Shown here piece after piece: positions 3,892-21,570 of a stretch of 64,000 bases of DNA. The position numbers were made by a program, and so were the translations under genes. The first letter of the stretch is position 1. Each line of letters begins with the position of its first letter. Location of the stretch: positions 12,538 through 76,537 of IMG/VR virus record IMGVR_UViG_3300025875_000008. One strand, given 5' to 3'. The notes under the pieces were generated by a model. That model had not been told where the DNA came from, searched no databases, and saw only the letters and a list, made by a program, of their open reading frames with translations. The DNA comes from a virus.

Positions 3892-3942
3892 CACCTCAAC
3901 TGACACCAGTTGCTACTGTGACAACACCATAAGGAGACTCAG

Positions 3943-4966: not shown

Positions 4967-4981
4967 AAGGACGAGTAGAAG

Positions 4982-6369: not shown

Positions 6370-7616
6370 TCGACTTCACGCAAGCGCCCCCGCAGGACGT
6401 CGCAGCCGAGCAGGCTGTCCTCGGTGCGGCCATGATGTCGCGGGAAGCGTTCAACACCGCCGCCGACATGCTCACCGCCGACCCACCCGGGGAAGAGTTC
6501 TACCGGCCCGCACATCAGCAGATCTGGCAGTCCATGCTGGACCTGAAGACTGCCGGCCAGCCGATCGACCCGGTGACCGTCTCCGACCAGCTCGCCCGCA
6601 ATGGTGTCCTCGGGGATGTCGGGGAACGCCCGTACATCCACACCTTGTACGCGTCCGTGGTGGTCGCGACCAACGTCAGCCACCACGCGACCATCATCAA
6701 AGACTTGCACCTGCACCGGAAGCTGATCGACGCAGCCACCCGCAACCTGCAAGACGCGCTGCAATCACTGGATCCTGTTGAGGCGATCCTTTCTCGGGCC
6801 GAAGCGCAACTGCGCACCGTGCCCACGCAGGCAGCCGACTTCACCACGTCTGTGATGTCGTTCGATGAGTTCTGCGACCAGCCCATTCCCCCCAATGACT
6901 GGATCGTCCCTGACCTGCTGGACCGGGGGGACCGCTTGGTGCTCACCGGCACCGAGGGTTTGGGCAAGTCGATCCTGATGCGCCAGTTCGCTGTGTCCGT
7001 CGCGGCAGGGTTTCATCCGTTCACGTACAAGCCGATGCCGTCGCAGACCGTGCTGTACGTCGACTGCGAGAACCCGAAAAAGATCATGATCAAGACGTTC
7101 GCCGAGATGCGCGATGCTGTGCGCCGCAACCGTGGGGCAATGGACGAGAAGCGGCTGTGGGTTGAGCGTCTGCCGTCCGGTCTAAACCTGGCTGAGGCGT
7201 CCGACCGGCTGTCGTTGCAGCGGCTGGTGTCACTCATCAACCCTGACCTGCTGTGCATCGGACCCGCGTACAAACTGTTCCGGGGTAGTTCGAAAGACAA
7301 GGATGAGGATCTGGCCCGCACTGTCACGCAGGCGCTGGACGACATCCGCGAATCCGTTGGGTGCGCCCTGGTCCTCGAGCACCACTCACCGCACGGATCC
7401 GATGGGGCGGACCGGGCAGTCAGACCGATCGGCTCGTCGTTGTGGCTGCGTTGGCCTGAGTTTGGCTACGGCATCCGGGCTGCAAAGGGCGCCACCAAGC
7501 AGAATCGGCTGGTTGACCTGCTGCCGTGGCGTGGATCTCGTGACGAACGTGACTGGCCGGACCAGCTCGCAGCCGGCACGAACTTCATGCCGTGGGTCGA
7601 CGCGAGTTGCGCATGA
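6366..7616 (+). CDS. dnaB: replicative helicase (DnaB N-domain + RecA/AAA_25 ATPase)
   Basis: PPQDVAAEQAVLG N-terminus; Walker A GTEGLGKS; EHH; IGSSLWLRWPEFG. Confidence 0.85.
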   Translation: MIDFTQAPPQDVAAEQAVLGAAMMSREAFNTAADMLTADPPGEEFYRPAHQQIWQSMLDLKTAGQPIDPVTVSDQLARNGVLGDVGERPYIHTLYASVVVATNVSHHATIIKDLHLHRKLIDAATRNLQDALQSLDPVEAILSRAEAQLRTVPTQAADFTTSVMSFDEFCDQPIPPNDWIVPDLLDRGDRLVLTGTEGLGKSILMRQFAVSVAAGFHPFTYKPMPSQTVLYVDCENPKKIMIKTFAEMRDAVRRNRGAMDEKRLWVERLPSGLNLAEASDRLSLQRLVSLINPDLLCIGPAYKLFRGSSKDKDEDLARTVTQALDDIRESVGCALVLEHHSPHGSDGADRAVRPIGSSLWLRWPEFGYGIRAAKGATKQNRLVDLLPWRGSRDERDWPDQLAAGTNFMPWVDASCA

Positions 7617-7735
7617 CTGACGATCTGCTGCATTGGCTGCGTCAGCAACCCGGGCGCTGTCGTCAGTGCGGCTTCCACACCACCCAAGGGCACCGCGCAA
7701 ATTGCGGGGCGAACAAACGACCGGAGGAACGATGA
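7613..7735 (+). CDS. small Cys/His peptide
   Basis: MTDDLLHWLRQQPGRCRQCGFHTTQGHRANC; coupled at both ends. Confidence 0.5.
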   Translation: MTDDLLHWLRQQPGRCRQCGFHTTQGHRANCGANKRPEER

Positions 7736-8031
7736 GTGAGCAGATGCCCGACCTGGAAGCGATCCGAATGAAGATCGCACGCAAGCGAAACAGCGGTTAC
7801 TACTTCGGCCTGCCAGCCGAGGAAGCGTTGCTTGCCGAGGTCGATCGCCTCGCCGCTCGCCTTGCCATGTTCGACGCTGCCACTTCTGCTGGCACTGAGC
7901 GCCCGTCAGATGGACAGGGGGCACTGGGAGACGCTACAGACCCCCGAGGCGCTACAAACCGCCCTACAGCCCCTGGAATGACCACTCTCGACCTCACCGC
8001 CATCCACGACTACTGCCACCAGGAGGACTGA
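7732..8031 (+). CDS. hypothetical protein
   Basis: GGAGG RBS, coupled ORF. Confidence 0.55.
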   Translation: MSEQMPDLEAIRMKIARKRNSGYYFGLPAEEALLAEVDRLAARLAMFDAATSAGTERPSDGQGALGDATDPRGATNRPTAPGMTTLDLTAIHDYCHQED

Positions 8032-8393
8032 TGACCAAGTTCGAAGTGCCCGTGTGTCGCTGCGGCGTCTATATGCACCTGCATCCCACAAGCCAGTGCG
8101 ACCTACGCAGGAAGGCGCGGTGGTGGCACCAGCACTACCTACACCGTCACATCGCCGTTCGCATCTGGTGGTCGCTGTCGGACAAAGCTCGTTGGGCTAT
8201 CGCGCACCGTATGGCATCCGACAAGCGCGACTGGTGCGACCTCGTGGATTCCGTCATCGCAGCAGGCCAGGACCGACGTGGTGACTGCTACGACGACCTG
8301 TGTGACGTGCCTTTGCCGACCGACGCCCGCCCTGTGGTGCCTGGTCGCTGCTACTGCTCACCGTCAACCCGAATCAAGGAGATGTCTGCATGA
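8031..8393 (+). CDS. Cys/Trp-rich hypothetical protein
   Basis: AGGAGG RBS, 120 aa. Confidence 0.6.
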   Translation: MTKFEVPVCRCGVYMHLHPTSQCDLRRKARWWHQHYLHRHIAVRIWWSLSDKARWAIAHRMASDKRDWCDLVDSVIAAGQDRRGDCYDDLCDVPLPTDARPVVPGRCYCSPSTRIKEMSA

Positions 8394-8638
8394 CGCTACA
8401 GATGACCCCGCAGCGAGCCCGCTACCTCGCGAAGAACTCACTGAACCCGGCCACCCAAGCCAAGATGTTCTCGTTCCTGCGCGACTACCAGGACCAGCGG
8501 CGTCGGCTGCGTGCAGGTGAGGATCTGCGGCCAGCGGACTACGGGCGCCACAAGCACACGATGCACCAGTACGCGCTCGGGTTTTCGCAGTGCACCGGCT
8601 GTGAGTTGCGGGTCAAGGATGAGCAGGTGGCGGCGTGA
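8390..8638 (+). CDS. hypothetical protein
   Basis: AAGGAG RBS; C-terminal CTGC. Confidence 0.6.
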   Translation: MTLQMTPQRARYLAKNSLNPATQAKMFSFLRDYQDQRRRLRAGEDLRPADYGRHKHTMHQYALGFSQCTGCELRVKDEQVAA

Positions 8639-8838
8639 AACGGCAGTGCCAGAGCAAGGCAGAGTGCGGCGCTTGCTGCCTTGAACAGGGCCATGAAGGT
8701 CCCCACGGTGTAGGCATCGGCCCGGGTTATTGGTTCGCGTACACCCGCCGCACATTGCTGCCACTTGGATACACCAGCGATATGCGCACCAATTCTTTGA
8801 CGCGCTTGCCCCTTGCACCGCTAGACGAGGCCGCGTGA
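8635..8838 (+). CDS. hypothetical protein
   Basis: GTGA-coupled; CxxxxxCGACCLEQGHEGPH. Confidence 0.5.
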   Translation: MKRQCQSKAECGACCLEQGHEGPHGVGIGPGYWFAYTRRTLLPLGYTSDMRTNSLTRLPLAPLDEAA

Positions 8839-9029
8839 CCGGCTCAAAGTTGGATTGGGAGTCGTCGCTGGTGTGGTTCCCGTGCCCTGAAGGGTGCGGC
8901 GGGCTGATCCGGGTGAGAGTTCGCGGGGTGGTGGAGGTTGTTGATGGCGAACGTGTCATGACGACAGCAACGGCGGATCGCGCCGACCTTGACCTGCACA
9001 TGGAGAAGAACCACGGGAAGGCTGCATGA
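8835..9029 (+). CDS. hypothetical protein
   Basis: GTGA-coupled; CPEGC...HMEKNH. Confidence 0.5.
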   Translation: MTGSKLDWESSLVWFPCPEGCGGLIRVRVRGVVEVVDGERVMTTATADRADLDLHMEKNHGKAA

Positions 9030-9718
9030 GCAACTGCGGATTTTGCCAGGCTGAGTGCGGCGACTCGTTCGTCTGCCCTCGCTGTGTTCGTGTGACCAGC
9101 CACAATCTCGCCGACATGCGCAACCACGCCGTCGAGCTGACGACGGTGATGATCAAGGACACCGCGTACTCCGAGAAGAGTGACGGCGGCAAGTCTGCTG
9201 ATCCGACAATTGCGTGGGCGAACATGGGTGACCGGTTCTTGGCGGATGTGCCGGGTGAGGTTGAGCGGAACCCGATCGCGACCCCGTATCAGAAGCAGGC
9301 GGCTGCGGTGATGCGCGAGCTGCACGCCACGTTGGTGCAGTGGACAAGGTTGCTCAACGAGGAACGGGGGATTCGGCTGCCGAGAAACACGATTCCGTCG
9401 TTGGCTGCGCATTTGCGGGACAACATGCGGATCCTGGCCGGGCATGAGGCGGCGGGTGAGTTCGTGGCCGAGATCACCGAGATTGTGAAACGCATCATGC
9501 AGGTGATCGACTCGCCGCCGTTCAGGGCCAGAGTGAAGGTCGGCAACTGCATCGAGAACATCGAAGGCCACGTGTGCCCCGGTGATGTGATCGCCTACAT
9601 CTACGCGGACGGCGACATGCTGGGGAAGCTGGCCTGCGTACGGTGCAAGCGGGAATGGGAACCTACCGATTGGGCAAAAGTCGGGCCGGCGATCGTGGCG
9701 AGGAAGGAAGCGGCGTGA
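9026..9718 (+). CDS. actinophage protein with terminal Zn fingers
   Basis: CxxC/CxxC at the N-terminus, C...C and CxxC...W at the C-terminus, helical core. Confidence 0.7.
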   Translation: MSNCGFCQAECGDSFVCPRCVRVTSHNLADMRNHAVELTTVMIKDTAYSEKSDGGKSADPTIAWANMGDRFLADVPGEVERNPIATPYQKQAAAVMRELHATLVQWTRLLNEERGIRLPRNTIPSLAAHLRDNMRILAGHEAAGEFVAEITEIVKRIMQVIDSPPFRARVKVGNCIENIEGHVCPGDVIAYIYADGDMLGKLACVRCKREWEPTDWAKVGPAIVARKEAA

Positions 9719-9882
9719 AAGTTGTGCGGATTTGGTCAGATGGTCCTGGGTCGTGGTTCGGGCTTTGTCGTCATTGCAACTACTCCCTTTGGCTCGGCGA
9801 GCATCGGTCAGTGGTACGACACATGGAAGTCCACTTCAATGCTGCGGCGGTTCACGTGATGTGCCAACGCCAAGATCGCTGA
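9715..9882 (+). CDS. small Zn-finger-like protein
   Basis: CRHC...HMEVH. Confidence 0.5.
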   Translation: MKVVRIWSDGPGSWFGLCRHCNYSLWLGEHRSVVRHMEVHFNAAAVHVMCQRQDR

Positions 9883-9895
9883 CAGGTTCTGCCAG
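9879..9895. promoter_or_regulatory. operator-like site
   Basis: CTGACA-N5-TGCCAG at a gene boundary, same arrangement as 1547, 58513 and 63228. Confidence 0.5.
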
Positions 9896-9973
9896 TCTGC
9901 GGTACCCTGAACGCAAGAGCCCCCGCACCTGTTGGCACAGGCCGGGGACGTGGACCACTATGAAGGAGTGGAC

Positions 9974-10180
9974 ATGACAGATGCTACAGACTTCCCAGCT
10001 ATGACCACCGCGAACCAGGCGAGTGACCACGAACACGAAAGTGAACTGAGAGTTGCGGACCTCATCGGCAGGTGCGCAAGGCTGATGGTTGAGTTGGAAA
10101 TGGCTCAACGCGAAGTGCGTGAACGAACGCGTGACGCTATGGTTCGCGTTATCGCGAGCGTTTCGGCAGTTGGTGATTGA
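9974..10180 (+). CDS. hypothetical protein
   Basis: AAGGAG RBS; coiled-coil C-terminus. Confidence 0.55.
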   Translation: MTDATDFPAMTTANQASDHEHESELRVADLIGRCARLMVELEMAQREVRERTRDAMVRVIASVSAVGD

Positions 10181-10184
10181 TCAC

Positions 10185-10508
10185 ATGACTGAGACCGAAG
10201 CCGTCATCATTCTCGGGTTGGCTTTCGCCGCTATCCCCCTCGTCTGGTTTGCGTGCTGGTTGGTTGACCACGATGCGCCTAAAAGCCGCATCGACCGCCT
10301 TAAGAAGGAAGTACTAGAGGCGCAGGCTGAGCGCGACCGGCACCAATTTGCCCGCAGTGCTTCTTTGGAGTTGCATCGTCACACGCAAGCGGAATTGCGT
10401 GAGACGCGGACTGCGCTTCAAGCCGCCGAGCTTCGATGCATTCAACTTGAAAACGAAGTATGGAACCTGACCGAGCGCGCTAATGCTGCCGAGACAATCT
10501 CAACATGA
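10185..10508 (+). CDS. single-TM coiled-coil protein
   Basis: AVIILGLAFAAIPLVWFACWLV followed by a heptad-rich region. Confidence 0.6.
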   Translation: MTETEAVIILGLAFAAIPLVWFACWLVDHDAPKSRIDRLKKEVLEAQAERDRHQFARSASLELHRHTQAELRETRTALQAAELRCIQLENEVWNLTERANAAETIST

Positions 10509-10684
10509 CTGAGCAGTGGGAACCTACGGTCGGTCAGTGCCTTGTGTGTGGCGGGCGTGGTGCATGGTGGTCAGGTCCACGTCGTGACACTTGCATCCGT
10601 TGCAAGGGAACGGGCTGGGATCCGTGCCGACACAAGGCTTGGTACAAGGAAACTATTGCACCGCTACAGAAGAGCAAGCCGTGA
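10505..10684 (+). CDS. DnaJ-type CxxCxGxG zinc-finger protein
   Basis: CLVCGGRG and CIRCKGTG. Confidence 0.6.
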   Translation: MTEQWEPTVGQCLVCGGRGAWWSGPRRDTCIRCKGTGWDPCRHKAWYKETIAPLQKSKP

Positions 10685-10872
10685 TTCGGCGACTGTGCGA
10701 CCTGATACGCGCCCGACGCTACAACCGCGCAATGGGTTACGACCTTCCCCGTGAGGTGCGAGCCGCGCGGACACGTGAAATATGGGATCGAGTACGGGCC
10801 AATTCTGCCGAAGGCGCAGCCGCGAAGGACAATCCCGAGTGGTGGAGGGACTGGCTTCAGTACCATCGCTAG
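10681..10872 (+). CDS. hypothetical protein
   Basis: GTGA-coupled ORF. Confidence 0.45.
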   Translation: MIRRLCDLIRARRYNRAMGYDLPREVRAARTREIWDRVRANSAEGAAAKDNPEWWRDWLQYHR

Positions 10873-10881
10873 TCTAATCGT

Positions 10882-11091
10882 GTGATCCTGCTTGGCATCA
10901 AGGATGCTGCAAGGTTCGGCGAGGTTCCCGAAGCGACCATCCGAAGGTGGATCACTGAGGGCAAGCTTGAGAAGCACGGGCGGGCGAAGCCGTACAAAGT
11001 GGACCTGAACAGGGTGCAGGAGTTAGGCGACACACTGCAACCAGGCAGACCACGTAAACCGAGCAATGGTCCTGATATAGTTGGCGCGTAG
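10882..11091 (+). CDS. small HTH protein
   Basis: IKDAARFGEVPEATIRRWITEGKL; TAGTCT -10 box 6 nt upstream of GTG. Confidence 0.75.
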   Translation: MILLGIKDAARFGEVPEATIRRWITEGKLEKHGRAKPYKVDLNRVQELGDTLQPGRPRKPSNGPDIVGA

Positions 11092-11124
11092 CGCGAGTCG
11101 ATTCCAACGGAGTCCTCGCGTTTT
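11091..11124 (+). terminator. intrinsic terminator
   Basis: CGCGAG..GATTCC-aac-GGAGTC..CTCGCG hairpin followed by TTTT. Confidence 0.55.
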
Positions 11125-11152
11125 GTCATGTTCCCTCACAGTTGGAGGTTGC

Positions 11153-11395
11153 ATGGCTGACGTCGCCTGCGCTTACTGCCGCGTTCAGAGCTACTACGGC
11201 GTCCTGTATCACGCTTACGACTGTGTGATGGTGGTCGACACCACGGCGGCTGGGGTTCACACCGCACGAGTTGGACAGGTGTGCGCGACCTGCGAGGACG
11301 AAATCGACTCGTTCTCGTACATAGACGACGGCATGGGTGGACGGCTGCCGGTGTGTCTTGGGTGCGCGGCTGAAGTGATGCTGATCGACCCGTAA
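11153..11395 (+). CDS. Cys-rich hypothetical protein
   Basis: GGAGG RBS; CAYC, CATC, CLGC. Confidence 0.55.
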   Translation: MADVACAYCRVQSYYGVLYHAYDCVMVVDTTAAGVHTARVGQVCATCEDEIDSFSYIDDGMGGRLPVCLGCAAEVMLIDP

Positions 11396-11460
11396 CCAGT
11401 TCGTCTGGCAAGTAACTGATTCGTTGACAACTACACATAACCGGTTGGGGGTGGCTGTTC

Positions 11461-14400
11461 GTGGCGATCGTTTTGGTTGGTGCTGCCACCTTGTTTGAGT
11501 CGGATGCGGTCACTGCGGCTGTTGTTCCTAAGCCGTCCGGGGTTGTGGTTGGTGACCTTCTCGTTGCGACCGTCACCCATTCGGACTCTGCCGGCATTGC
11601 TACCCCGTCTGGTTGGTCTGTTGCGATAGCTCGAGGTTCGTCGTCGGCGATTTTCACGGCGAAGTGGTATCGGTTCGCGACGTCAACTGATGTGGTGGCT
11701 GGGTCGTACACGTTCCAGACGTCGACCACTGCCGGTCGGGTCACTGGCGCCATGTACGCCCTGCGCGGGGTTGATCCCACTTCGCCGTTGGATTCAACTC
11801 CTGTTTCGGTGGGTGTGAACTCCACGACGGGGCCGTTGGTGCCTGGTGTGGATACGGTCACTTCTCAGGCGTTCATTGACAGCACGGCCACGTTGAACGC
11901 TTCAGCTTCGGAGACGTTGACTGCACCGTCGAACTTCACTGCCCTGTCGCAGAATGTGGCGGGGACTGGGCGTCGGCAGGCGATCGCGTACCGGTTCGAT
12001 GAGACGCCGGGCACGTCGTCTACGGTGCAGTGGACGAAAACCACCACGACGTCGTTGCAGCACATTGGTTCGCAGACTGCGTTTCGCCCGGACGCGAATG
12101 CGCCTGTCACCCCGACTGTTCCGATTCGGGTTGTTGGCAATGAGGGCCGCATCCGCACTCAGACGGCGAACGCGACCAGTGTCCGCATCAAGGTGGCGAC
12201 CGACGCGGCGATGACGCAGAACGTGGTTTACACGACTCCGCAGACCCCGACCGCGCAGGGGAACACTTACCATCAGGTGACCGGGCTCACCCCGTCTTTG
12301 ACGAAGTATTACTACCGGGTGATGATGACCGGTTCTGACGGTGAGATTCAGGACACGGAGTCGGTGCAGGGTCGTCTGCCGATTCTGCCCACGTCGGGGC
12401 AGTTGTCGTTCACGTTGAGCTTTTCGGCGTGCTGTGATGCGGTGGACTCTGCGGCGATGACCGCCATCTACAACCGCAACGACCCGATTTTCGTCAACAA
12501 CGGCGACTTCTACTACGCGAAGCCTGAGCCGGGCGAGATCTCCACCACGTCCTATCGCACCAAGTTCAACGGGAAAATGTCGAAGCTGGTGGCCCCGAAC
12601 CATGCGGCGGTGATGGCGACCTCCATCGTTGATGTTGGTCCGTCTGACCACGACTTCGGGATGAACAACAACCTGAACAATGGGACGACCCCGACCGCGA
12701 CCCCGCTTTACAATGCGGTGTATCGGGAGGTGTTCCCTGTTGGGTCGGTGGGGAACGGCACTACGGGTGTTTACCGGACTTACACGGTTGGTCGGGTGCG
12801 GTTCATTCGCATTGACTGTCGTTCGTTCGCTTCGGCGCCTTCCGCTACGGATAACACGTCGAAGACGATGCTGGGGTCGGTGCAGAAGCAGTGGTTGAAG
12901 AACACGATCACGGCTGCGACTGAACCGCTGATCGTCATTCACGGTGATACGTCGTGGATTGGTTCCGCTGATGCTGGCGACGACGGTTGGCTTGGGTACA
13001 CGGTTGAGCGTGCCGAACTGGGCGCGTTCTTCGCCAGCTCGGGGAAGAACATCGGTATGACCGGCGGCGATATGCACGCTTTGGCTGCGCATGCTGGCGG
13101 GTCTGGTTCGCCTGGTGGTATCCCTTATTGGGGTGCGGCGCCCATTCACAACGAGTCGTCCATTAAGGGTGGCCCGTACACGAATGGGCCGTATCCGTCG
13201 ACGGTGATTGTGGACCCGCCTGGGGTGGAGCAGTACGCCCGTTTGGCGTTCACTGACAGCGGTTCGAACATCACTGTTGCTTACACCGGCTACTCGGCTG
13301 ACAACACAGTCCGGCTGACTCAGACGAACACGTTTTCGGCTGACGCACCGGTCACCCCGCCGCCGTCTGGGACTGTGGTGCTCAACGAGAACCGTCAAGC
13401 TGGCGACCTCGACTTTCACCTGACCGTTGACCACCCGGCGTTGCGGACCGCGTATTTGGCGCGGAACCCGGGCACCACCCTTCCTGTGGTCACGGACCCG
13501 TTCGACGCGGTGCACAAAGCGGTTCATGCCACGTTGCATTCTGAGCACAACGCGTTGGGTGCTGGTACGACGTTGCCGACAACCATTGGTGCGTCAGGGC
13601 ATCTCGCGCACCATGCCGCGTTGGCGAAGGCGCACAACCTGCGTTTGGTCGGCGGCGGCGTTCCGAGCATCCCGACTAGCGTCACCCGCGTCTCGAACGC
13701 TTCCGACACGGCGACCATCACCTGGGCGCCGCCCACTTCCGCTGGCGGGTCTCCGATCACCGGGTACCGGGTATCTCGGGATGGGACGTCGGTCAACGGT
13801 ACTGGCCCGTACACGATTGTTCGTCCGTCGACGGATCGTTCGTTCACGTTCGGTTCGATGCAGACTGGTGTTGCTTACAACCTGACGGTGACGGCGATCA
13901 ACCCTTACGGTGACGGGCCGGCGTCTACGGGGTCGGTGACCATTCTGTCCGAGGCGACGGGTGGGATGCCCACCAACGACCTGGCGGACTTCACCCTGTT
14001 GTTCAATGACGACTTCAACGTGGACGCGTCGGCTGGTCAGTTCTTGAGCAAGTACCCGGGTTGGCGCGCCTACCCGAACAGCTACAAGGACACCTCCGAC
14101 CACGGCACCTATGAGCCGAACATCATCACCTGCGCCAACTCGACGTTGGACATGTGGATTCATTACGAGTCGTCGACTGGGCGGTATCTGTGCGCTGCGC
14201 CTGAGCCGCGCATCAACGGGATCAACGGTCCTCGAGGTCAGACGTATGGCCGGTACGCGTTCCGTTGGCGGGTTGTTGCCCCCATCCCCGGTTACAAGAC
14301 GGCGTGGCTGCTGTGGCCTGACAGCAACAACTCCGACGAAGGTGAGATCGACTTCCCTGAGGGCGATTTGGATGGTGTGGACACGATCCGCGCCTACTCC

Positions 14401-14700
14401 CATGACGTGCAGGGTGTTCATTCGCACAATGCGTTCTCGAAGAACACGGGTGTTGTTTACGCCGGGTCAGGTTGGCATACGGGTGTCATTGAGTGGAAGC
14501 CGACAGGGGTTACGTTCTGGTTGGACGGCACCAACTTGGGCACCACCCCGTCTTTGGGTACGCCGGTTACTCCGATGCACTGGGTGTTGCAGACCGAGAC
14601 CGAGTTGGGTTCCAGCAGCCCGCCGCCGCAGTCGTCGTCGGGGCATGTGCAGTTGGACTGGGTTGCTGTGTGGGATTACACGCCGGGCAGCACACCCTGA
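11461..14700 (+). CDS. phoD: multidomain protein: beta-sandwich + PhoD-like phosphatase + FN3 + GH16
   Basis: PhoD-type motifs SACC, GDFYY, SDHDFGMNN, IDCRSF, GSVQKQWL, DGWLGYTVER, GDMH; FN3 (ITWAPP..GGSPITGYRV); GH16 EIDFPE; no signal peptide. Confidence 0.8.
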   Translation: MAIVLVGAATLFESDAVTAAVVPKPSGVVVGDLLVATVTHSDSAGIATPSGWSVAIARGSSSAIFTAKWYRFATSTDVVAGSYTFQTSTTAGRVTGAMYALRGVDPTSPLDSTPVSVGVNSTTGPLVPGVDTVTSQAFIDSTATLNASASETLTAPSNFTALSQNVAGTGRRQAIAYRFDETPGTSSTVQWTKTTTTSLQHIGSQTAFRPDANAPVTPTVPIRVVGNEGRIRTQTANATSVRIKVATDAAMTQNVVYTTPQTPTAQGNTYHQVTGLTPSLTKYYYRVMMTGSDGEIQDTESVQGRLPILPTSGQLSFTLSFSACCDAVDSAAMTAIYNRNDPIFVNNGDFYYAKPEPGEISTTSYRTKFNGKMSKLVAPNHAAVMATSIVDVGPSDHDFGMNNNLNNGTTPTATPLYNAVYREVFPVGSVGNGTTGVYRTYTVGRVRFIRIDCRSFASAPSATDNTSKTMLGSVQKQWLKNTITAATEPLIVIHGDTSWIGSADAGDDGWLGYTVERAELGAFFASSGKNIGMTGGDMHALAAHAGGSGSPGGIPYWGAAPIHNESSIKGGPYTNGPYPSTVIVDPPGVEQYARLAFTDSGSNITVAYTGYSADNTVRLTQTNTFSADAPVTPPPSGTVVLNENRQAGDLDFHLTVDHPALRTAYLARNPGTTLPVVTDPFDAVHKAVHATLHSEHNALGAGTTLPTTIGASGHLAHHAALAKAHNLRLVGGGVPSIPTSVTRVSNASDTATITWAPPTSAGGSPITGYRVSRDGTSVNGTGPYTIVRPSTDRSFTFGSMQTGVAYNLTVTAINPYGDGPASTGSVTILSEATGGMPTNDLADFTLLFNDDFNVDASAGQFLSKYPGWRAYPNSYKDTSDHGTYEPNIITCANSTLDMWIHYESSTGRYLCAAPEPRINGINGPRGQTYGRYAFRWRVVAPIPGYKTAWLLWPDSNNSDEGEIDFPEGDLDGVDTIRAYSHDVQGVHSHNAFSKNTGVVYAGSGWHTGVIEWKPTGVTFWLDGTNLGTTPSLGTPVTPMHWVLQTETELGSSSPPPQSSSGHVQLDWVAVWDYTPGSTP

Positions 14701-14816
14701 TGGGGTTGTCTCGTCGGGAGGTTCTGCGCACCACCGTGTTGGCGTTCTTTTGGCCGCTGGGTAAGCCGAAGCGGTTGAAGGACGTGTACTCCGACCTGTA
14801 CAAGCGGAAGGGGTGA
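14700..14816 (+). CDS. 38-aa peptide with twin-arginine-like N-terminus, in frame with the downstream phoD
   Basis: MGLSRREVLRTTVLAFFWPLGKPKRLKDVYSDLYKRKG; TGATG-coupled to phoD-1; TGA CGT GTG leads in frame into phoD-2. Confidence 0.55.
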   Translation: MGLSRREVLRTTVLAFFWPLGKPKRLKDVYSDLYKRKG

Positions 14817-14819
14817 CGT

Positions 14820-16790
14820 GTGACGATCACCCTTGTTGGTTCGCCAACCCTTTATGAGTCGGATGGTGTAACCAGCGCCGTCATTCCCATCCCCTCGGGG
14901 GTTGCGGTCGGTGATTTGTTGGTGGCGACGGTCACTCACTCGACTAACGCTGCGATTGCCACCCCGTCTGGTTGGTCGTTGACGTTCGGGCGGGCTTCCA
15001 GTTCCGGCATTTACACGGTCAAGTTGCACCGGTTCGCTGTGTCCGGTGATGTTGCTGGTGGTAGTTACACGGTTGCGACAAGCGGCACTGCTGCCCGCGT
15101 GACTGGGATGATGTACGCCCTGCGGGGTGTGGACCCGACGACACCGGTTGATGTGACGCCTGTGTCGGTGGGTGTGAATGCGACCACCGCACCGTTGGTT
15201 CCGTCTATGACGACGGTGACGGCGAACACGTTCATCGACTGCACGGCGTCCGTGAACTCGTCCGCTTCGGAAACCTTGACCGCGCCGGCCCCGTTTGTGG
15301 AGCTGGTGCAGAACGTGACGGGTGCTGGTAGGCGTCAGGCGATCGCGACCCGCACAGCCCCTTCTGCTGGTGCGACGGGCACGGTTCAGTGGACTAAGAC
15401 GACCGCCACGTCACTTCAGCACATTGGTATGCAGGTTGCGTTCCGGGCTGACAGTTCGGTCGCTGCTGATCCTGCTGTGCCTATTCGTGTGGTCGGTAAC
15501 GATGGCCGGATTCGCACGCAGACGACGGATGCTGCGAGTGTGCGGATCAAGGTCGCCACCAATGCGGCGATGACTACAGGTGTGGTTTTGTCGTCCCCTG
15601 TCACCCCTGACAGTCGTGGCAACGCGCAGCATCAGATCACCGGGTTGACGGCTGGGGTCACCTACTACTACCGGGTGATGATGACGAGTGTTGGCGGGGT
15701 TGAGACCGCTGACACTGAGCCGGTGCAAGGCAGGTTGCCGATCGCACCAACGGGTGCAACCTCGTTCGGCATGAACATTGTGGCGTGCTGTCTTGCCGCT
15801 GATTCGCCTGTGATGGCAGCCGTGTACAACCGGGGCGATGGTTTGTTGGCTCATCAGGGCGACCTGTACTACAACGACGGTGGCCCGGTCACTGAGGCGA
15901 ACTACCGCACCCAGTTCGACAACAAAGCGTCAAAGCTGGTGGCACCCAACCATGCTTCGGTGATGGCAACCAACGTGTTCGACTATGGGCCGTCTGATCA
16001 TGACTTTGGTTTCAACAATGACCAGAACGCTGGGTCGACCCCGGCTGCTGTTGCCCCGTTCAACCTTGTTTACCGGGACACGTTCGCGGTTGGCGCTGTT
16101 GGGAACGGTACGACGGGCATCTATCACACGTTCACCTGGGGTCGGGTTCGGTTCATCCGCCTTGACACCAGGTCGTTTGCGTCGGCACCGTCAGCAACTG
16201 ACAACAGTTCCAAGTCGACCCTGGGCACCGTTCAGAAGCAGTGGCTGAAAGATACGATCACCGCCGCAACGGAGCCGCTCATCATCATCTTGGGTGACAC
16301 CACTTGGGTTGGGCCGGCGGTTGCACCATCGGATGGTTGGGTTGGGTTCACCACCGAACGGGCTGAACTGGGTGCGTTCTTCCTCGCCTCGGGAAAAAAC
16401 ATTGGCATGGTGACCGGCGACACTCACGCTGTGCAAGCACACAACGGTACTGATGTGACCGGTGGTGTTGGGTCCGAGGGCAAAATTCCCATGTGGGGTT
16501 CGGCGCCCATCAGTAACACTGCGAACCAGAAGGGCGGGCCGTACTCGGTTGGCCCATACCCTGCGTCGGGCACAGCATCGGTGCAGCAGTACGCACGACT
16601 CGCGATCACTGACACGGGCACGTCGAACATCACCGTTGACTACACGGCGTACAGCGCCGACAACACGGTGCGGCTAACGCAGTCCAGCACGTTCACCACA
16701 GCCACCGTCACAGCACCCACCAAGGCGCCCGCCAAGCGGATCCTCACCCCTCAGACAAGGAGACGCGATGGCTACCTACGCCGCAGCTAA
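14820..16790 (+). CDS. phoD: second PhoD-like phosphatase (paralog of the first ~630 aa of 11461-14700)
   Basis: VACC, GDLYY, SDHDFGFNN, LDTRSF, GTVQKQWL, DGWVGFTTER, GDTH. Confidence 0.8.
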   Translation: MTITLVGSPTLYESDGVTSAVIPIPSGVAVGDLLVATVTHSTNAAIATPSGWSLTFGRASSSGIYTVKLHRFAVSGDVAGGSYTVATSGTAARVTGMMYALRGVDPTTPVDVTPVSVGVNATTAPLVPSMTTVTANTFIDCTASVNSSASETLTAPAPFVELVQNVTGAGRRQAIATRTAPSAGATGTVQWTKTTATSLQHIGMQVAFRADSSVAADPAVPIRVVGNDGRIRTQTTDAASVRIKVATNAAMTTGVVLSSPVTPDSRGNAQHQITGLTAGVTYYYRVMMTSVGGVETADTEPVQGRLPIAPTGATSFGMNIVACCLAADSPVMAAVYNRGDGLLAHQGDLYYNDGGPVTEANYRTQFDNKASKLVAPNHASVMATNVFDYGPSDHDFGFNNDQNAGSTPAAVAPFNLVYRDTFAVGAVGNGTTGIYHTFTWGRVRFIRLDTRSFASAPSATDNSSKSTLGTVQKQWLKDTITAATEPLIIILGDTTWVGPAVAPSDGWVGFTTERAELGAFFLASGKNIGMVTGDTHAVQAHNGTDVTGGVGSEGKIPMWGSAPISNTANQKGGPYSVGPYPASGTASVQQYARLAITDTGTSNITVDYTAYSADNTVRLTQSSTFTTATVTAPTKAPAKRILTPQTRRRDGYLRRS

Positions 16791-17064
16791 AGCCAAGCAC
16801 GCCACCCTCACCGCTAGCACTGTGGACACTGTCACCCTCAGCAACTGCTCCAACGTGGAAGTGCTGAACCGTGGCACCACCGAGCTGTACTTCACCGTGG
16901 ACGGCACAACCCCCACTGTTGCAGGTGACAACTGTTACATCGTGCAAGCAGGGGCGGCGTTGCAGGTGCCCGGGTCTTCGCCTACCTACGTGCAGGACCG
17001 CGTTGCCATTGCAGTCAAGGTGATCTCGTCTGCTGCTGTCGCCTACTCGGTGACTGGGTTCTGA
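16768..17064 (+). CDS. small beta-rich, possibly virion-associated protein
   Basis: AAGGAG RBS; Thr/Val-rich (LYFTVDGTTPT). Confidence 0.6.
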   Translation: MATYAAAKAKHATLTASTVDTVTLSNCSNVEVLNRGTTELYFTVDGTTPTVAGDNCYIVQAGAALQVPGSSPTYVQDRVAIAVKVISSAAVAYSVTGF

Positions 17065-17073
17065 GCCTGAGTC

Positions 17074-17286
17074 GTGGCCGTTCTCGGCAATACTCCGTCT
17101 GCTCGAGCCAGACAGCATGAGGTCACAGCGCGTGAGCATGACAGGTTGGCAGCAGATGAACGCAGGTTGAGGGACGGGCTGATACGGCAACTGAGGGCTG
17201 ACAACCCGAAGGTGTGGACGTACGCAGCGTTAGCCAAAGCGGTTGGCATCACTGAAACAGCAGTACGAACGGCGATCAAAGGGTGA
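17074..17286 (+). CDS. small HTH protein
   Basis: WTYAALAKAVGITETAVRTAI. Confidence 0.65.
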   Translation: MAVLGNTPSARARQHEVTAREHDRLAADERRLRDGLIRQLRADNPKVWTYAALAKAVGITETAVRTAIKG

Positions 17287-17576
17287 GCCTGAGGGTCTGC
17301 GCTCAACCCGGATGCCCTGCACTAGTCAAGCAAGGCAAGTGTGTTGAGCACTCAATGACAACTACGCAACGCGGGTACGGTGTCGAGCACCAAGCCAAAA
17401 GGCAACAGTGGAAGCCGTCCGTTGATGCCGGCGTGACCGTGTGCTCAAGATGCAGTGAGCCGATACAGCCCGGTGAGCCTTGGCACCTAGACCACACCGA
17501 CATGCGCGACGGATACCTAGGGCCAAGCCACGAACGGTGCAACACAAGCGCGGCTGGCAAGGCTGCGCACGCATGA
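17283..17576 (+). CDS. packaging-associated HNH endonuclease
   Basis: CAQPGC, RGYG, CSRC...WHLDH...HERCN; directly upstream of terminase, as in cos phages. Confidence 0.85.
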   Translation: MSLRVCAQPGCPALVKQGKCVEHSMTTTQRGYGVEHQAKRQQWKPSVDAGVTVCSRCSEPIQPGEPWHLDHTDMRDGYLGPSHERCNTSAAGKAAHA

Positions 17577-17660
17577 AGGGTGGGGAGTGACCCCCTCCCC
17601 CTCCTCCCGGCGCTGACCGTCGGCAGGTCTCTCGCAGTCCAAACCCCTGAGTTTTGCCCC
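17577..17660. other. probable cos (cohesive end) region
   Basis: G/C-run intergenic gap between HNH and terminase small subunit (GGGTGGGG..ACCCC..CTGACCGTCGGCAGG); exact overhang not determinable. Confidence 0.45.
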
Positions 17661-17683
17661 GAACCCACGAAAGGAACGCTCCT

Positions 17684-18049
17684 ATGCCCCCTGTAGCCGC
17701 TCCTGTGGGGCTTGGTCCGTCTGGCGACGCCTTATGGTGTGACATCACCGAGGCCCACGAGTTGGACGCAACGCAACTGGTGACTCTGACTGAGGTGTGT
17801 CGGGCAAAAGATCGACTTGACCGGTTGGACGAACTGTTGCGGGGCAACCTTGACCCGACGACGCTAAACCAGGCGAACACCACTGCGAACTTGATGAAGC
17901 AGCTCATTGCGTCTCTTCGGCTGCCGGATCCTGTGTCGGAGAAGCGTCCCCAGTTCCGCGGTGCTCGTGGTGCTCAGAAGCCGTCTGTCCCTGGTGGTGG
18001 GTCGAAGGTGTCCAGCTTGGACCGCGCCCGGGCGGCTAAGACTTCCTGA
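17684..18049 (+). CDS. terS: terminase small subunit
   Basis: GLGPSGDALW...L..C...DRL...QLIASLRLPD pattern; position. Confidence 0.8.
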   Translation: MPPVAAPVGLGPSGDALWCDITEAHELDATQLVTLTEVCRAKDRLDRLDELLRGNLDPTTLNQANTTANLMKQLIASLRLPDPVSEKRPQFRGARGAQKPSVPGGGSKVSSLDRARAAKTS

Positions 18050-19635
18050 TGGGGTGGGCTGGTCCGCTGTTCGAAGGGCATGTGTGCAGCGTCGGCTATG
18101 AGGTTCTGGACTGGATCCACGAGTACGAGTGCCACGGCCCGGGAGATGTGCAGGGCGACCCGTTGGACTTGGATGACGAGATGCGTGAGCACATCATCGA
18201 GTGCTACCGCATCGACCCTGTGACTGGCCGGCGTGTGTTCGATGAGGCTGTGCTGTCTCGTCCGAAGGGCCGGGCGAAGTCGGAGATCGCCGGCTTGGTG
18301 GGTGTGGCTGAAGCGTTCGGCCCTGTCCGGTTTGACGGGTGGGACGCTGACGGGCAGCCGGTCGGCCGCCCTATTCGGTCCCCGCTGATCAAGTGCCTTG
18401 CCACTGAGGAGACTCAGGCTGGGAACACGTTCGAGAACATCGCGTTCATTGCTGGCGAGTGGGGCAAGGACACGCACCCGGACATCTACGGCGGCGTCTC
18501 GGGGATGAACAAGTACCAGTCGGCGTCGGTGCTGTACCTGGCCGGCGGCGGTGAGATCCGGGCGTGCACTGCTGGTGCGGCGTCGAAAGATGGCGGCAAG
18601 GAAACGCACGTCATCCCCGACGAGACGCACCTGTATGTGACTCGTGAGTTGCGCAGCATGTACGCGACGGTGGCCCGGAACTTGGGTAAGCGGAAGATTG
18701 CTGAGCCGTGGATGCATCAGACGTCGACCGCGTACCGTCCGGGCGAAGAGTCGGTGTTTGAGGAAACTCTGTCGTCATGGCGGAAGGGCACCCTGTCGCC
18801 GCGGGTCTACATGAACCACCGTGAGGCGAAGGGTCGCATCGACATTCGCGATGAGGCTCACACGAAGCGGCAACTGTTGTACGTGTACGGGGCTTCGGCG
18901 CCGTGGCAGGACATGGACCGCAAGTACCGCGACATGCTGGATCCGCGCATCTGCCCGGATGACGCGACTGCTGCCCGTTACTACCTGAACCGCCCGATGT
19001 CGACGGTGGATGCGTGGATCGCAAAGGACGTGCACGAACGGCAGGTCAAGGCTCGGGAAGTGTTGCCGGGTGAGTCGATCACGCTCGGCTTTGACGGTTC
19101 GCTGAACGACGACACGACGGTGCTGCGCGGCTGCTGCATGTCGGACGGGTTCCTGTTCCGCATCGGTGCTTGGCCGAAACCGGACGGTGCTGCGGGGATC
19201 GGCTGGGAGGTTCCCCGGCAGGATGTGCTGGCGACCATCCGTGAGGCGTTCGCGCGGTATGACGTGATCCGCGCCTACTTCGACCCGCACGAGTGGCGCA
19301 CAGACATCGACAACCTGGCCGACGAGTTCGGTGAGGACCGAGTCATCTCGTGGGCGACTACCCGGGACGTGGCAATGGGTGCCGCCCTAGACCGGTTGCA
19401 CGCGGACCTGATGAACGGCACGGTCTGGCATGACAACGACCCGCTAGCCGCTGAGCATTACGGCAACGTGTATGTGCGACGCAAGGGACCGCACCGTCTG
19501 GTCCGCAAGGAACACCCGAACTCTGCCCGCAAAATTGACTCGGTTGTGGGTGACGCTCTCGCCTATGAGGCTCGAGCAGATGCCCTGACCGCTGGCTTCG
19601 GCCAATCTCTTAGTGGATGGATGGTGGGGCTGTGA
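18049..19635 (+). CDS. terL: terminase large subunit
   Basis: SRPKGRAKSE Walker A region, DETH Walker B, LGFDGS and KIDS nuclease motifs. Confidence 0.95.
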   Translation: MGWAGPLFEGHVCSVGYEVLDWIHEYECHGPGDVQGDPLDLDDEMREHIIECYRIDPVTGRRVFDEAVLSRPKGRAKSEIAGLVGVAEAFGPVRFDGWDADGQPVGRPIRSPLIKCLATEETQAGNTFENIAFIAGEWGKDTHPDIYGGVSGMNKYQSASVLYLAGGGEIRACTAGAASKDGGKETHVIPDETHLYVTRELRSMYATVARNLGKRKIAEPWMHQTSTAYRPGEESVFEETLSSWRKGTLSPRVYMNHREAKGRIDIRDEAHTKRQLLYVYGASAPWQDMDRKYRDMLDPRICPDDATAARYYLNRPMSTVDAWIAKDVHERQVKAREVLPGESITLGFDGSLNDDTTVLRGCCMSDGFLFRIGAWPKPDGAAGIGWEVPRQDVLATIREAFARYDVIRAYFDPHEWRTDIDNLADEFGEDRVISWATTRDVAMGAALDRLHADLMNGTVWHDNDPLAAEHYGNVYVRRKGPHRLVRKEHPNSARKIDSVVGDALAYEARADALTAGFGQSLSGWMVGL

Positions 19636-21068
19636 GCGAACAACTGATGCGCTCACTGGCCTCCGATCTGTCTCATCGCAAGGTGTCGGTGCCTGAGAAG
19701 GTCGGTTACGACATGCTCGACGCCTACCACTCAAATCGACAGCCGTTGAAGTTCCTGCACCCGGACATTCGCCAGCAGGTCGGTGATCGGCTGACCGCGC
19801 TGGCGATCAACTGGGCTCGCGTGATCATCGGCAGCGTTGAGGAACGTCTGGACGTGGAAGGGTTCCGGCTCGGGACCGACTCTGCTGCTGACGATGACCT
19901 GTGGCGGATTTGGCAGGCGAACGACCTGGACGAGTGGTCGCAGCTCGGGCATGTGGATGCGATGAAGTTCGGTCGGTCGTTCGGGTTGGTGTGGGGCGAC
20001 GAGGACGACCCTGAGACGCCCCGTATCTCGGTTGAGTCGGCTCGGCAGATGACGGTGCAGTATCGGCCCGGGTCTCGCCGGGTTGAGGCTGCCGCGAAGG
20101 TCTATGTAGACCCGGACAGTGAAGCCGGCAACCCGACCCCGCAGCAGGTCGGCTGGCTGTACCTGCCTGACCGTGCGGAACGGTACGAGGGTGGTGGCAC
20201 TAGTAATCGCTGGACGAAGGTGGATGAGCTTCCGAACCCGCTCGGTGTGGTGTCGGTGGTGCCTTTGGTGAACCGTCCTCGGCTTGACGACCTGTCCGGC
20301 GAATCCGAGTTGGTCGACGTTCTGCCGCTGGTGGATGCGGTCAACAAGCTCGCCACGGACATGATGGTGGCCTCCGAGAAGCAGGCGATGGGCGACCGGT
20401 ACGCGACAGGCATTGAGATCCCCCGTGAGGCTCAGAACAATGAGCGGCTGCGCGCTGAGGTTGCTCATCGTTGGGAAGAGGCCACGAAGGGTAAGACGTG
20501 GCTTGCTGGTCCGGGTGTTGAGTTCGGCCAGTTCCCCGCTGCCCAGTTGACGAACTTCATCGCGGCGATTGAGATGTTGCAGCGCACGATCGCCGCCCTT
20601 GCCGGTTTGCCGCCGCATTACACGGGTCAGTCGTCGGACAACCCTGCTTCGGCTGACGCGATCCGGTCGGCTGAGGCTTCCCTGATCAAGCGGACGCTAC
20701 GGAAGATGCGTGGCTTCGGTGGGTCGTGGGAAGAGTTGATGCGGCTTGCAATGTGCGTCCGTGACGGTATCCCGCGTGCGGATCTTGACCGGAAGTTCGA
20801 CCGGTTGGAGACGCAGTGGCGTGACCCGGCAACACCGACGCCGGCCCAGAAGGCAGATGCGGCGGTGAAGTTGGTGACGGCGAACATCATCACCGTCGAC
20901 CAGGCGCTCGAGGATCTGGGTTACACGCCGCAGCAGATTGTGAAGAACAAGGCGGATCGGCGTGCTGCCGCTGTTGAGTCGGCTGCCCTGAACTTGTCGA
21001 ACGTATTCCAGCCGCAGCAGCCTCCGGTGGTTGCTCCTGTCGTTGAGCCTGATGCCGGCGTTCGCTGA
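19632..21068 (+). CDS. portal protein (SPP1 gp6-like actinophage type)
   Basis: INWARVII..VEERL.VEGF, WQANDLD, NPASADAIRSAE, WRDPATPT. Confidence 0.92.
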   Translation: MSEQLMRSLASDLSHRKVSVPEKVGYDMLDAYHSNRQPLKFLHPDIRQQVGDRLTALAINWARVIIGSVEERLDVEGFRLGTDSAADDDLWRIWQANDLDEWSQLGHVDAMKFGRSFGLVWGDEDDPETPRISVESARQMTVQYRPGSRRVEAAAKVYVDPDSEAGNPTPQQVGWLYLPDRAERYEGGGTSNRWTKVDELPNPLGVVSVVPLVNRPRLDDLSGESELVDVLPLVDAVNKLATDMMVASEKQAMGDRYATGIEIPREAQNNERLRAEVAHRWEEATKGKTWLAGPGVEFGQFPAAQLTNFIAAIEMLQRTIAALAGLPPHYTGQSSDNPASADAIRSAEASLIKRTLRKMRGFGGSWEELMRLAMCVRDGIPRADLDRKFDRLETQWRDPATPTPAQKADAAVKLVTANIITVDQALEDLGYTPQQIVKNKADRRAAAVESAALNLSNVFQPQQPPVVAPVVEPDAGVR

Positions 21069-21570
21069 GGTCGCATCGGTACTTGCGGCACAGACGGAAC
21101 GCGCTGCGCTGGCGCTCTGGGAACGGTACGAGTCAAGCGCGTTGACCCGGGATGAGTTCGTGGAAGCTATCGCGCTGTTGGTGGAAGCCACTCGGGACAG
21201 GGTTGGGACTTTGGCCGCTGCGGCCCTGGCAGCCCGCCTGTCTGAGCTGTCCGGCGAACGCGTGTTTCCGGTTGCGGTCAGCGTCTCGCACGCCGGCGTG
21301 ACGGCGGGTGTTGTGGCTGCCCTAGCTGCCCCTGTGGTGGTGGATGCGCTAGGGGTTATGGCGCGCGACCAGACGTTCTCCGCTGGCCGCGAGGCGTTCG
21401 CGGACGGGCTTGAAGCGCATGACGTTCCCGCCTGGCGACGGGCGACCAACCCGGGCGCGTGCAAGGTGTGCAGAGACCTGAGTGTCGCCGATTGGATTCC
21501 TCAATCAGTTCCGATGTGGCACCACACTGGGTGCGGCTGCCATCAGGACCCGGTAGTGGAGGTCTCCTAG
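21052..21570 (+). CDS. minor head / capsid maturation protein (MuF-like)
   Basis: Between portal and scaffold; C-terminal WRR...ACKVC...HTGCGC. Confidence 0.7.
   Translation: MPAFAEVASVLAAQTERAALALWERYESSALTRDEFVEAIALLVEATRDRVGTLAAAALAARLSELSGERVFPVAVSVSHAGVTAGVVAALAAPVVVDALGVMARDQTFSAGREAFADGLEAHDVPAWRRATNPGACKVCRDLSVADWIPQSVPMWHHTGCGCHQDPVVEVS

Follow-up and report, generated by a model that had tools for sequence, protein, structure and literature searches.

We analysed a 64,000-nt window of viral DNA (positions 12,538-76,537 of IMG/VR record IMGVR_UViG_3300025875_000008), in which two neighbouring open reading frames (ORFs), here called ORF A and ORF B, encode predicted PhoD-type metallophosphoesterases. 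Coordinates are positions in this window unless marked as record positions. The two ORFs lie head to tail on the + strand and translate without internal stops. Their domains are as follows (aa, amino acids; FN3, fibronectin type III; GH, glycoside hydrolase; pLDDT, predicted local distance difference test).

11461..14700, + strand: ORF A, 1079 aa, with N-terminal beta-sandwich, PhoD_N-like domain, PhoD catalytic domain, His-rich linker, FN3 domain and GH16 domain
11461..12096, + strand: ORF A N-terminal beta-sandwich, aa 1-212; no Pfam or PHROG model matches the module alone
12106..12390, + strand: ORF A PhoD_N-like FN3-type domain, aa about 216-310; PF16655 at 23.9 bits, alignment to the 2YEQ N-domain, beta strands in the model
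12403..13356, + strand: ORF A PhoD catalytic domain, aa about 315-632; C324, D349, Y352, S395, D396, H397, N402-404, D452, D537, H539
13363..13665, + strand: ORF A His-rich linker, aa about 635-735; no Pfam or PHROG match, low pLDDT
13672..13932, + strand: ORF A FN3 domain, aa 738-824; PF00041 at E = 4.7e-10, titin FN3 matches
13978..14685, + strand: ORF A GH16 laminarinase-type domain, aa about 840-1075; EIDFPE at aa 962-967 (nt 14344-14361)
14820..16790, + strand: ORF B, 656 aa, with N-terminal beta-sandwich, PhoD_N-like domain, PhoD catalytic domain and a 21-aa basic tail
14820..15455, + strand: ORF B N-terminal beta-sandwich, aa 1-212; model pLDDT 95, 13 strands, fold matches in BFVD, AFDB and Atlas
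15465..15749, + strand: ORF B PhoD_N-like domain, aa about 216-310; PF16655 at 25.3 bits, 2YEQ profile alignment
15762..16715, + strand: ORF B PhoD catalytic domain; C323, D348, Y351, S392, D393, H394, N399, N400, D449, D534, H536

A BLASTP alignment of ORFs A and B (E = 0) shows 63% identity across 660 columns. Such identity over about 650 residues marks them as true paralogs and not as a chance resemblance, in agreement with the tandem, colinear paralogs that a first-pass annotation, made from the sequence alone, had placed at these coordinates. The same annotation had described a shared N-terminal beta domain of about 210 aa, which we recovered as an all-beta sandwich of about 212 aa with a mean pLDDT of 95; the two N-domains are 67-68% identical. 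It had further suggested that the duplication allows a different C-terminal cargo, and the C-termini do differ in this way: ORF A ends in FN3 and GH16 domains, ORF B only in its 21-aa tail. A megablast of the 5.3-kb region against phage records returned no match.

The central part of both proteins belongs to the PhoD family by sequence profile and predicted fold. Pfam PhoD (PF09423) scored 45.6 bits for ORF A and 45.9 bits for ORF B (cut-off 27). The preceding PhoD_N region stayed below the PF16655 cut-off of 30 bits in both; it aligns to the N-domain of 2YEQ, the structure of Bacillus subtilis PhoD, and the model shows it as all-beta. The profile built from 52 family sequences matched 2YEQ with an E-value of 2.8e-32. 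Residues 1-635 of the full-length ORF A model mostly had pLDDT >90, and Foldseek gave 2YEQ as the best PDB match of this model (E = 3.7e-19, template modelling (TM) score 0.60 by target), followed by purple acid phosphatases. The first-pass annotation had made its reading depend on a metallophosphatase fold, and this is the fold predicted here. These results support the assignment of ORFs A and B as PhoD-family metallophosphoesterases.

In B. subtilis PhoD, C180, D207, D265, D266, N271, N272 and D436 are metal ligands whose substitution abolishes or drastically cuts activity, and the calcium ligands Asp-265, Asp-266, Asn-271 and Asn-272 are close to invariant across the PhoD family (PMC4223295). 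By profile alignment, ORFs A and B keep every mapped ligand except D265, now Ser. The equivalents of the Fe(III) ligands Cys-180, Asp-207 and Tyr-210 are C324/C323, D349/D348 and Y352/Y351 in ORF A/ORF B, those of Asp-436 and His-438 in the GDxH motif are D537/D534 and H539/H536, and counterparts of D266, N271 and N272 are present in both. The corresponding motifs are C324, GDFYY (348-352), PSDHD (394-398), NNN (402-404) and GDMH (536-539) in ORF A, and C323, GDLYY (347-351), PSDHD (391-395), NN (399-400) and GDTH (533-536) in ORF B. All PhoD motifs named in the first-pass annotation were thus found in both ORFs, and the Ser that it had noted in place of the first Asp of DDH sits exactly at Asp-265 in the 2YEQ alignment.

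This metal site is characteristic of a wider family. Seven residues are invariant in 52 of 52 members: the Cys, the Asp and Tyr of GDxxY, the Asp in second place of SDHD and the Asp that follows, the Asp of xDxR, and the His of GDxH. The Asp at the D534 position is present in 51 of 52. Of the 52 sequences, 46 have Ser at the D265 position, only 21 have Asn at the N271 position, and 48 have Asn or Asp at the N272 position. WDDHD is retained in 27 of 30 bacterial PhoD-like genes that are about 30% identical, so the Ser is a derived trait of the phage clade. This pattern suggests that the third metal site (CaB) has been remodelled or is being lost, with the Fe/CaA pair kept. The metal centre would then shift toward a binuclear arrangement resembling that of purple acid phosphatases.

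PhoD is an extracytoplasmic family that needs Fe3+ and Ca2+, and bacterial PhoD is a Pho-regulon phosphate scavenger (PMC4223295). Neither ORF A nor ORF B has a signal peptide, as there is no RR motif in the first 60 residues and no hydrophobic leader. An in-frame TGA 36 nt ahead of its GTG start leaves no room to extend ORF A upstream, and an in-frame stop is found 6 nt before ORF B. In the model, the first strand of the folded N-domain already spans residues 4-17, and an RR-type leader was found in none of 27 aligned homolog N-termini. The claim that these PhoD proteins lack signal peptides therefore holds.

Known families and solved structures did not identify the N-terminal beta-sandwich. 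The N-domain alone had no tblastn match to phages at E <= 0.01, no PHROG match and no credible Pfam match, and Foldseek found nothing in the PDB at E <= 1e-3. With VIA-align, the best Z among 48,161 chains was 5.4, inside the tool's stated noise, with weak TNF/C1q-like jelly-roll rows over the second half only. We claim neither a known solved fold nor a new fold for this module.

Predicted structures contain the module many times over. In BFVD, 86 viral proteins matched at E <= 1e-3 with a TM of about 0.8, including a "minor tail protein" of mycobacteriophages PP and Hawkeye and a glycerophosphodiesterase (GDPD) of Microbacterium phage ValentiniPuff. In AFDB, the matches were clusters of multidomain surface proteins from bacteria, with the module at the N-terminus, at the C-terminus or inside the protein. 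The Atlas matches, mostly from Actinomycetota, joined it to a PF04185 phosphoesterase with GH99, to Metallophos/purple acid phosphatase with FN3, to PKD and to cell-wall-anchor proteins. A profile of the module searched against 1.84 billion cluster representatives hit 42,812 at E <= 1e-3 and 915 at E <= 1e-30, many of the proteins having 2-7 copies and lengths of up to 6283 aa. Two of the ten top matches were PhoD proteins with two module copies, and one (P0105) fused the module to Sipho_Gp37.

Within Actinomycetota and their phages, the partners of the module are thus PhoD, PF04185, Metallophos/purple acid phosphatase, GDPD, GH99, PKD and Sipho_Gp37. Its pairing with four unrelated phosphoesterase folds suggests that it recognises a phosphodiester-bearing ligand. 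Because it also occurs at internal and C-terminal positions in bacterial surface proteins, it does not appear to be a dedicated virion adaptor, and we infer a binding or targeting module rather than a virion anchor. With this many representatives and partners and no Pfam model, it looks like a large uncharacterised binding domain.

The C-terminal part of ORF A carries a second predicted catalytic domain. PF00722 scored 23.0 bits on aa 825-1079 alone (cut-off 22) and 19.5 bits, below the cut-off, in the whole-protein scan. A profile built from nine related domains matched GH16 beta-1,3-glucanases with an E-value of 2.1e-25 and aligned EIDFPE to GEIDIME of 3ATG; the catalytic ExDxxE motif of GH16 is intact in ORF A. 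Searched against the PDB as a single sequence, the GH16 region had no match, its relatives emerging only via the profile, and it had none among the PHROGs when scanned alone. The last 440 residues of the ORF A model, where the beta-jelly-roll of GH16 would be expected, mostly have pLDDT <50, because the alignment is shallow there.

A word-based search identified 58 relatives, of which the closest outside this virus are 40-52% identical. PhoD_N and PhoD form the conserved core and most members have the N-module, while the C-terminal extensions vary. An extension may be absent, or consist of a GH16 or ConA-like glucanase, a GH99-like domain with PKD (of which only PKD scored above the Pfam cut-off), FN3, repeats of about 20 aa, or such repeats followed by Sipho_Gp37. 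The repeat tails are 300-390 residues of roughly 20-aa, Ser/Gly/Thr-rich tandem repeats of the 'LSGSGTL' type behind the PhoD domain (P0029, P0032, P0033, P0037, P0038, P0017, P0005, P0015, P0021 and P0026), and may form a fibre-like stalk; the tail of P0029, the only one scanned, had no Pfam or PHROG match. In P0008, N-module, PhoD, repeats and a Sipho_Gp37 tail-tip domain are fused in frame.

The full architecture is found almost only in phages. Among 185,579 species, each represented by one genome, it occurred only in a prophage of Segeticoccus rhizosphaerae (Micrococcales; locus L010), where the gene lies about 7.5 kb downstream of the tape measure protein (TMP) gene. The nearest cellular copies are those of Segeticoccus and of an Arthrobacter metagenome-assembled genome. 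Homologs in cyanophages are annotated as alkaline phosphatase D.

We also compared the genomic positions of these relatives. Of six metagenomic phage or prophage loci, five have the gene in the interval that separates tail genes from lysis genes. Locus L006 carries a pair of paralogs, of which one has GH16; they come behind Sipho_Gp37 and Gp53-like tail genes, and a LysM protein follows. In L007, the gene directly follows TMP and precedes an amidase and a holin. It comes after TMP, a 304-aa ORF in the Dit position and Sipho_Gp37 in L008, where a membrane protein and an endolysin follow, and after tail genes including a pectate-lyase-like protein in L009, ahead of an amidase and a holin. On one contig, it comes after the lysis cassette and adjoins a PKD-GH16 protein. 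In Thermobifida phage P1312, a distant version, again located between tail and lysis genes, stands immediately behind TMP and a tail protein. Other positions are between capsid and connector genes in Microbacterium phage Hortus1 and among tRNA genes in Streptomyces BE-cluster phages. The varied positions, mostly near tail or lysis genes, indicate a mobile late-region cassette that is not fixed in one place.

In the window, the PhoD pair is surrounded by the following small ORFs and packaging genes.

14700..14816, + strand: putative 38-aa micro-ORF, its start overlapping the ORF A stop (TGATG), with an SRR motif
16768..17064, + strand: 98-aa ORF overlapping the end of ORF B by 23 nt; phrog_32632, unknown function
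17283..17576, + strand: HNH endonuclease
17654..18049, + strand: small terminase
18049..19635, + strand: large terminase

Downstream of ORF B, the order is 98-aa ORF, 70-aa ORF, HNH endonuclease, small terminase, large terminase, portal and major capsid protein, which agrees with the position upstream of the packaging genes given in the first-pass annotation. Every gene from 10882 to 21068 is co-directional, with gaps of at most 77 nt, and ORFs A and B are likely co-expressed with the late genes. In L006 (12751-13032) and L009 (12973-13257), ORFs of 93 and 94 aa that are 53% identical to each other stand right after the PhoD gene. A conserved small partner gene was rejected at the present locus, where the 98-aa ORF is unlike these two (E = 0.37).

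Upstream of ORF A are a DnaB-like helicase and small ORFs. Just ahead of the PhoD pair and the late array, 10882-11091 encodes a 69-aa HTH_17/MerR-like DNA-binding protein, which may be a late-gene regulator or excisionase-like. ORFs A and B thus lie between replication genes and the HNH/terminase genes, outside the tail module and about 13 kb upstream of TMP (27823-32100), which is accompanied by a Dit-like and a Sipho_Gp37 protein. The tail module ends with two glycosidases. The first (38850-41801, 983 aa) has two PKD domains and a complete GH81 endo-beta-1,3-glucanase (PF17652 E = 5e-90, PF03639 E = 2e-43), and the second (41813-43444, 543 aa) has FN3 and GH26-like domains. With GH16 in ORF A and GH81 here, the phage encodes two enzymes of the beta-1,3-glucanase type, a hint of beta-glucan in the envelope of the host.

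The endolysin (44907-46679) has an M15 peptidase in its C-terminal half, and its N-terminal 300 residues gave only a weak EEP (Exo_endo_phos) match (E = 0.043, 14 bits against a cut-off of 24.5). At 48254-50146 lies an FtsK/SpoIIIE-like ATPase with a C-terminal T5orf172/MUG113 domain. The contig has no tRNA genes and no bacterial flanks. The portal is 41-44% similar to those of Streptomyces and Arthrobacter phages, and an actinobacterial host of the order Micrococcales is a reasonable guess. Members of the Micrococcales have teichoic, teichulosonic and glycosyl-phosphate wall polymers.

The record itself, of 85 kb, does not look like one genome. Record positions 1975-21450 recur imperfectly (74-98% identity) at record positions 64893-83388, and an identical copy of ORF B is present on a 62,849-bp contig. 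From these two observations we place the true genome size at about 62.7 kb; the record appears to be a concatemer in which assembly has joined two related variants of that genome. The second copy, of about 19.5 kb, falls in the window from about 52356 on and ends about 900 bp short of ORF A; the coordinates of ORFs A and B are unaffected. The GC content is 62%.

Taken together, the domain architecture and the comparative gene context make it probable that ORFs A and B are wall-polymer depolymerases, whatever their route of delivery. More tentatively, we favour enzymes that would cut phosphodiester-linked glycopolymers of the cell envelope and act free after lysis. The substrate, the timing of expression and the delivery route are what we infer from architecture and context. 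The targets would be teichoic-acid-type or phosphoglycan polymers of the actinobacterial host, probably one of the Micrococcales. The N-terminal beta-sandwich would target or bind the substrate. The PhoD domain would hydrolyse phosphodiesters with a metal centre in which the Fe(III) ligands and the bridging Asp are retained and the third site is remodelled by Ser for Asp-265 and a variable Asn-271. ORF A would additionally cut beta-1,3-glucan-type linkages through GH16. Made in the cytoplasm with the late gene products, the proteins would reach the wall once holin and endolysin open the cell. There, as free accessory enzymes, they might finish wall breakdown, free progeny from debris or strip neighbouring cells.

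Several observations support this reading. Family members are repeatedly fused to GH16, GH99-like, PKD or FN3 domains, and the fold of the N-module recurs in actinobacterial surface proteins with PF04185, Metallophos/purple acid phosphatase or GDPD. The same phage has GH81 and GH26-like proteins in its tail module, and the pair sits in a tight co-directional array with the packaging genes. Free delivery is supported by the position of ORFs A and B outside the tail module, the BE-cluster homologs among tRNA genes and the composition of ORF B, which is module plus enzyme only. We found no virion-anchor domain in either protein and no paralog of the N-domain among the other proteins of the phage genome.

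Other results weigh against this reading. The location of the gene among tail genes in five of six metagenomic loci favours display on the virion, as do the Sipho_Gp37 fusions of a homolog (P0008) and of the N-module alone (P0105). D265A abolished the para-nitrophenyl phosphate (pNPP) activity of B. subtilis PhoD, so the Ser variant is possibly inactive or altered. Between 8500 and 18500, predicted promoters and terminators were fewer than in shuffled controls and none was usefully placed, which leaves gene spacing as the basis for the operon structure.

The same chemistry could instead be carried on the virion, by accessory appendages such as side fibres or tail-tip decorations that strip wall polymers at adsorption, like phi29 gp12 or the Ld17 enzyme. 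Homologs follow TMP, Dit and Sipho_Gp37 genes in L006, L008, L009, the Segeticoccus prophage and phage P1312, and many end in 20-aa tandem repeats that are fibre-like in look. Two diverged copies also recall multi-depolymerase phages. The name "minor tail protein" given to structural relatives of the N-module in mycobacteriophages PP and Hawkeye also points this way, but rests on synteny. Against display on the virion stand the 13 kb between ORFs A and B and the tape measure gene, with the pair placed between replication and packaging genes, and the lack of a recognisable anchor domain, coiled coil or trimerisation module in either protein. The N-module also occurs internally and C-terminally in bacterial surface proteins, and the virion liquid chromatography-tandem mass spectrometry (LC-MS/MS) table of P1312 lists no peptide coverage for its homolog, ORF22. 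No relevant report of PhoD or purple acid phosphatase on phage virions came up in literature searches. We regard display on the virion as a serious possibility, only somewhat less likely than free release and, like it, short of probable. The first-pass annotation had proposed virion appendages that strip anionic wall polymers. The wall-polymer half of this proposal is favoured by the GH, PKD and FN3 fusions, the tail-lysis position in relatives and the Sipho_Gp37 fusion. The appendage half fits less well with a locus outside the tail module, proteins with no recognisable anchor domain and the P1312 table.

Alternatively, the PhoD domain might have lost catalysis and only bind phosphorylated wall polymers, in a receptor-binding or lectin-like role. 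In B. subtilis PhoD, not only D265A but also N271A and N272A each abolish activity (PMC4223295), and the D265 and N271 positions are mostly altered in the phage family. However, the seven other active-site residues, including the Cys and Tyr iron ligands and the His of GDxH, are the same in every one of the 52 sequences, which favours selection on catalysis. ORFs A and B have also kept the NN, and an apparently intact GH16 as fusion partner speaks for an enzyme. Pure binders therefore seem improbable.

The first-pass annotation had offered auxiliary genes for phosphate scavenging as its other option, in which the enzymes would split organic esters so that a phosphate-limited infection could draw on the phosphate for phage DNA synthesis. 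The Pho-regulon role of bacterial PhoD and the alkaline phosphatase D label of the cyanophage homologs speak for this. It is unlikely, because an enzyme that is not exported meets external esters only after the producer cell has died, and phosphate freed after lysis comes too late for the infection from which the enzyme stems. The binding module, FN3, GH16 and the tail and lysis neighbourhood of homologs point to polymers, as in a carbohydrate-active enzyme, and no obvious Pho-box-like repeat was seen upstream by inspection. We hold scavenging to be very unlikely, and this part of the annotation was not upheld.

Slightly less credible still are cytoplasmic phosphodiesterases acting on nucleotides, on cyclic or oligonucleotide immune signals or on teichoic acid precursors, for anti-defence or takeover. 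The missing signal peptide would suit such a role, as would the BE-cluster homologs, which lie in a non-structural region among tRNA and RNA-related genes. Free Ca2+ in the cytoplasm is generally low, which counts against it. PhoD chemistry needs this ion as well as Fe3+, the binding module and the FN3, GH16 and PKD partners are typical of extracellular enzymes, and the genes adjoin late genes.

Last, ORF B might partly be made as a Tat-exported isoform, for example secreted from a prophage, by UGA readthrough of the micro-ORF, which shares its frame (TGA at 14814, then CGT, then the ORF B GTG), is translationally coupled to ORF A, encodes SRREVL followed by a hydrophobic stretch and has high GC at third codon positions (32/37); this is barely credible, since the hydrophobic stretch is short and runs into a strongly basic segment, there is no AxA-type cleavage site, the micro-ORF has no homolog or family match in Pfam or PHROG, no such leader occurs in the 27 aligned family N-termini, and ORF B has its own start with a purine-rich site upstream.

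For wall-glycopolymer depolymerases released at lysis or carried by the virion, a broader picture can be sketched, although as a whole we consider it rather doubtful. A nearly phage-confined PhoD clade with a remodelled metal centre and an abundant beta-sandwich module would constitute an uncharacterised class of phage teichoicase or phosphoglycan depolymerase, virion-carried or co-released. Together with GH16, GH81 and GH26-like enzymes it would form a toolkit against a phosphate-linked, beta-glucan-containing wall polymer, with the N-module binding phosphodiester polymers. To our knowledge, phages that cut teichoic-acid-type polymers do so with enzymes of GDPD or beta-helix fold. A PhoD-type teichoicase without Tat export and with an altered metal site would be a new enzyme class for breaching Gram-positive walls. 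Such enzymes would also be candidate reagents to analyse or strip the phosphate-containing wall glycopolymers of Actinomycetota, which are poorly known. Homologs are already deposited in cultured actinophages as hydrolase, phosphoesterase or purple acid phosphatase, none of them characterised. The present locus adds the tandem diverged pair, the PhoD and GH16 fusion and the position ahead of the packaging genes, and our analysis adds the clade-wide Asp-to-Ser change and the size and partner range of the N-module.

Among known systems, B. subtilis PhoD (2YEQ) shares fold and family, with a candidate FN3-like N-domain before the metallophosphatase core and equivalents of its Cys, Asp and Tyr iron ligands and of D266, N271, N272, D436 and H438 in ORFs A and B. 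In contrast to it, ORFs A and B have no Tat signal, Ser for Asp-265 and an extra N-terminal beta-sandwich of about 212 aa, and ORF A also has FN3 and GH16. No match to the capping helix region of the Bacillus enzyme (residues 560-577) was seen in the profile alignment.

A close phage family is PHROG 13624 ('hydrolase'), which matches full length including the N-module (E = 1.3e-64 for ORF A and 6.8e-61 for ORF B; profile positions 17-645 of 651). Its members include Streptomyces BE-cluster proteins such as Jay2Jay gp121, annotated as hydrolase or purple acid phosphatase. These homologs are about 28% identical over residues 18-631 (tblastn). Unlike ORFs A and B, they are single-copy, have no GH16 and lie among tRNA genes; they are uncharacterised.

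PMC6116005 cites work on two virion-borne teichoic-acid hydrolases, the phi29 appendage gp12 (PMC4521036) and the baseplate glycerophosphodiesterase of Lactobacillus phage Ld17 (PMC4974393). The likeness lies in the proposed job, cutting phosphodiester-linked wall polymers, and the GDPD protein of Microbacterium phage ValentiniPuff shares the N-module structure with ORFs A and B. The catalytic folds of gp12 and the Ld17 enzyme are beta-helix or GDPD, unrelated to the PhoD metallophosphatase. Virion association is established for those two enzymes and is only a possibility for ORFs A and B.

P1312 ORF22, annotated as 'phosphodiesterase' (phrog_24476), resembles ORF A and ORF B in its PhoD-type domain and is a large modular protein, with a carbohydrate-binding module, encoded after TMP and a tail protein. 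It differs in that identity reaches 26% over the catalytic domain only and a signal peptide was predicted by its authors. Finally, the C-terminal domain of ORF A is likened by its profile match, with ExDxxE aligned, to GH16 laminarinases and beta-1,3-glucanases (PDB 3ATG and 2HYK). It is set apart from them by being very divergent and fused behind a phosphodiesterase.

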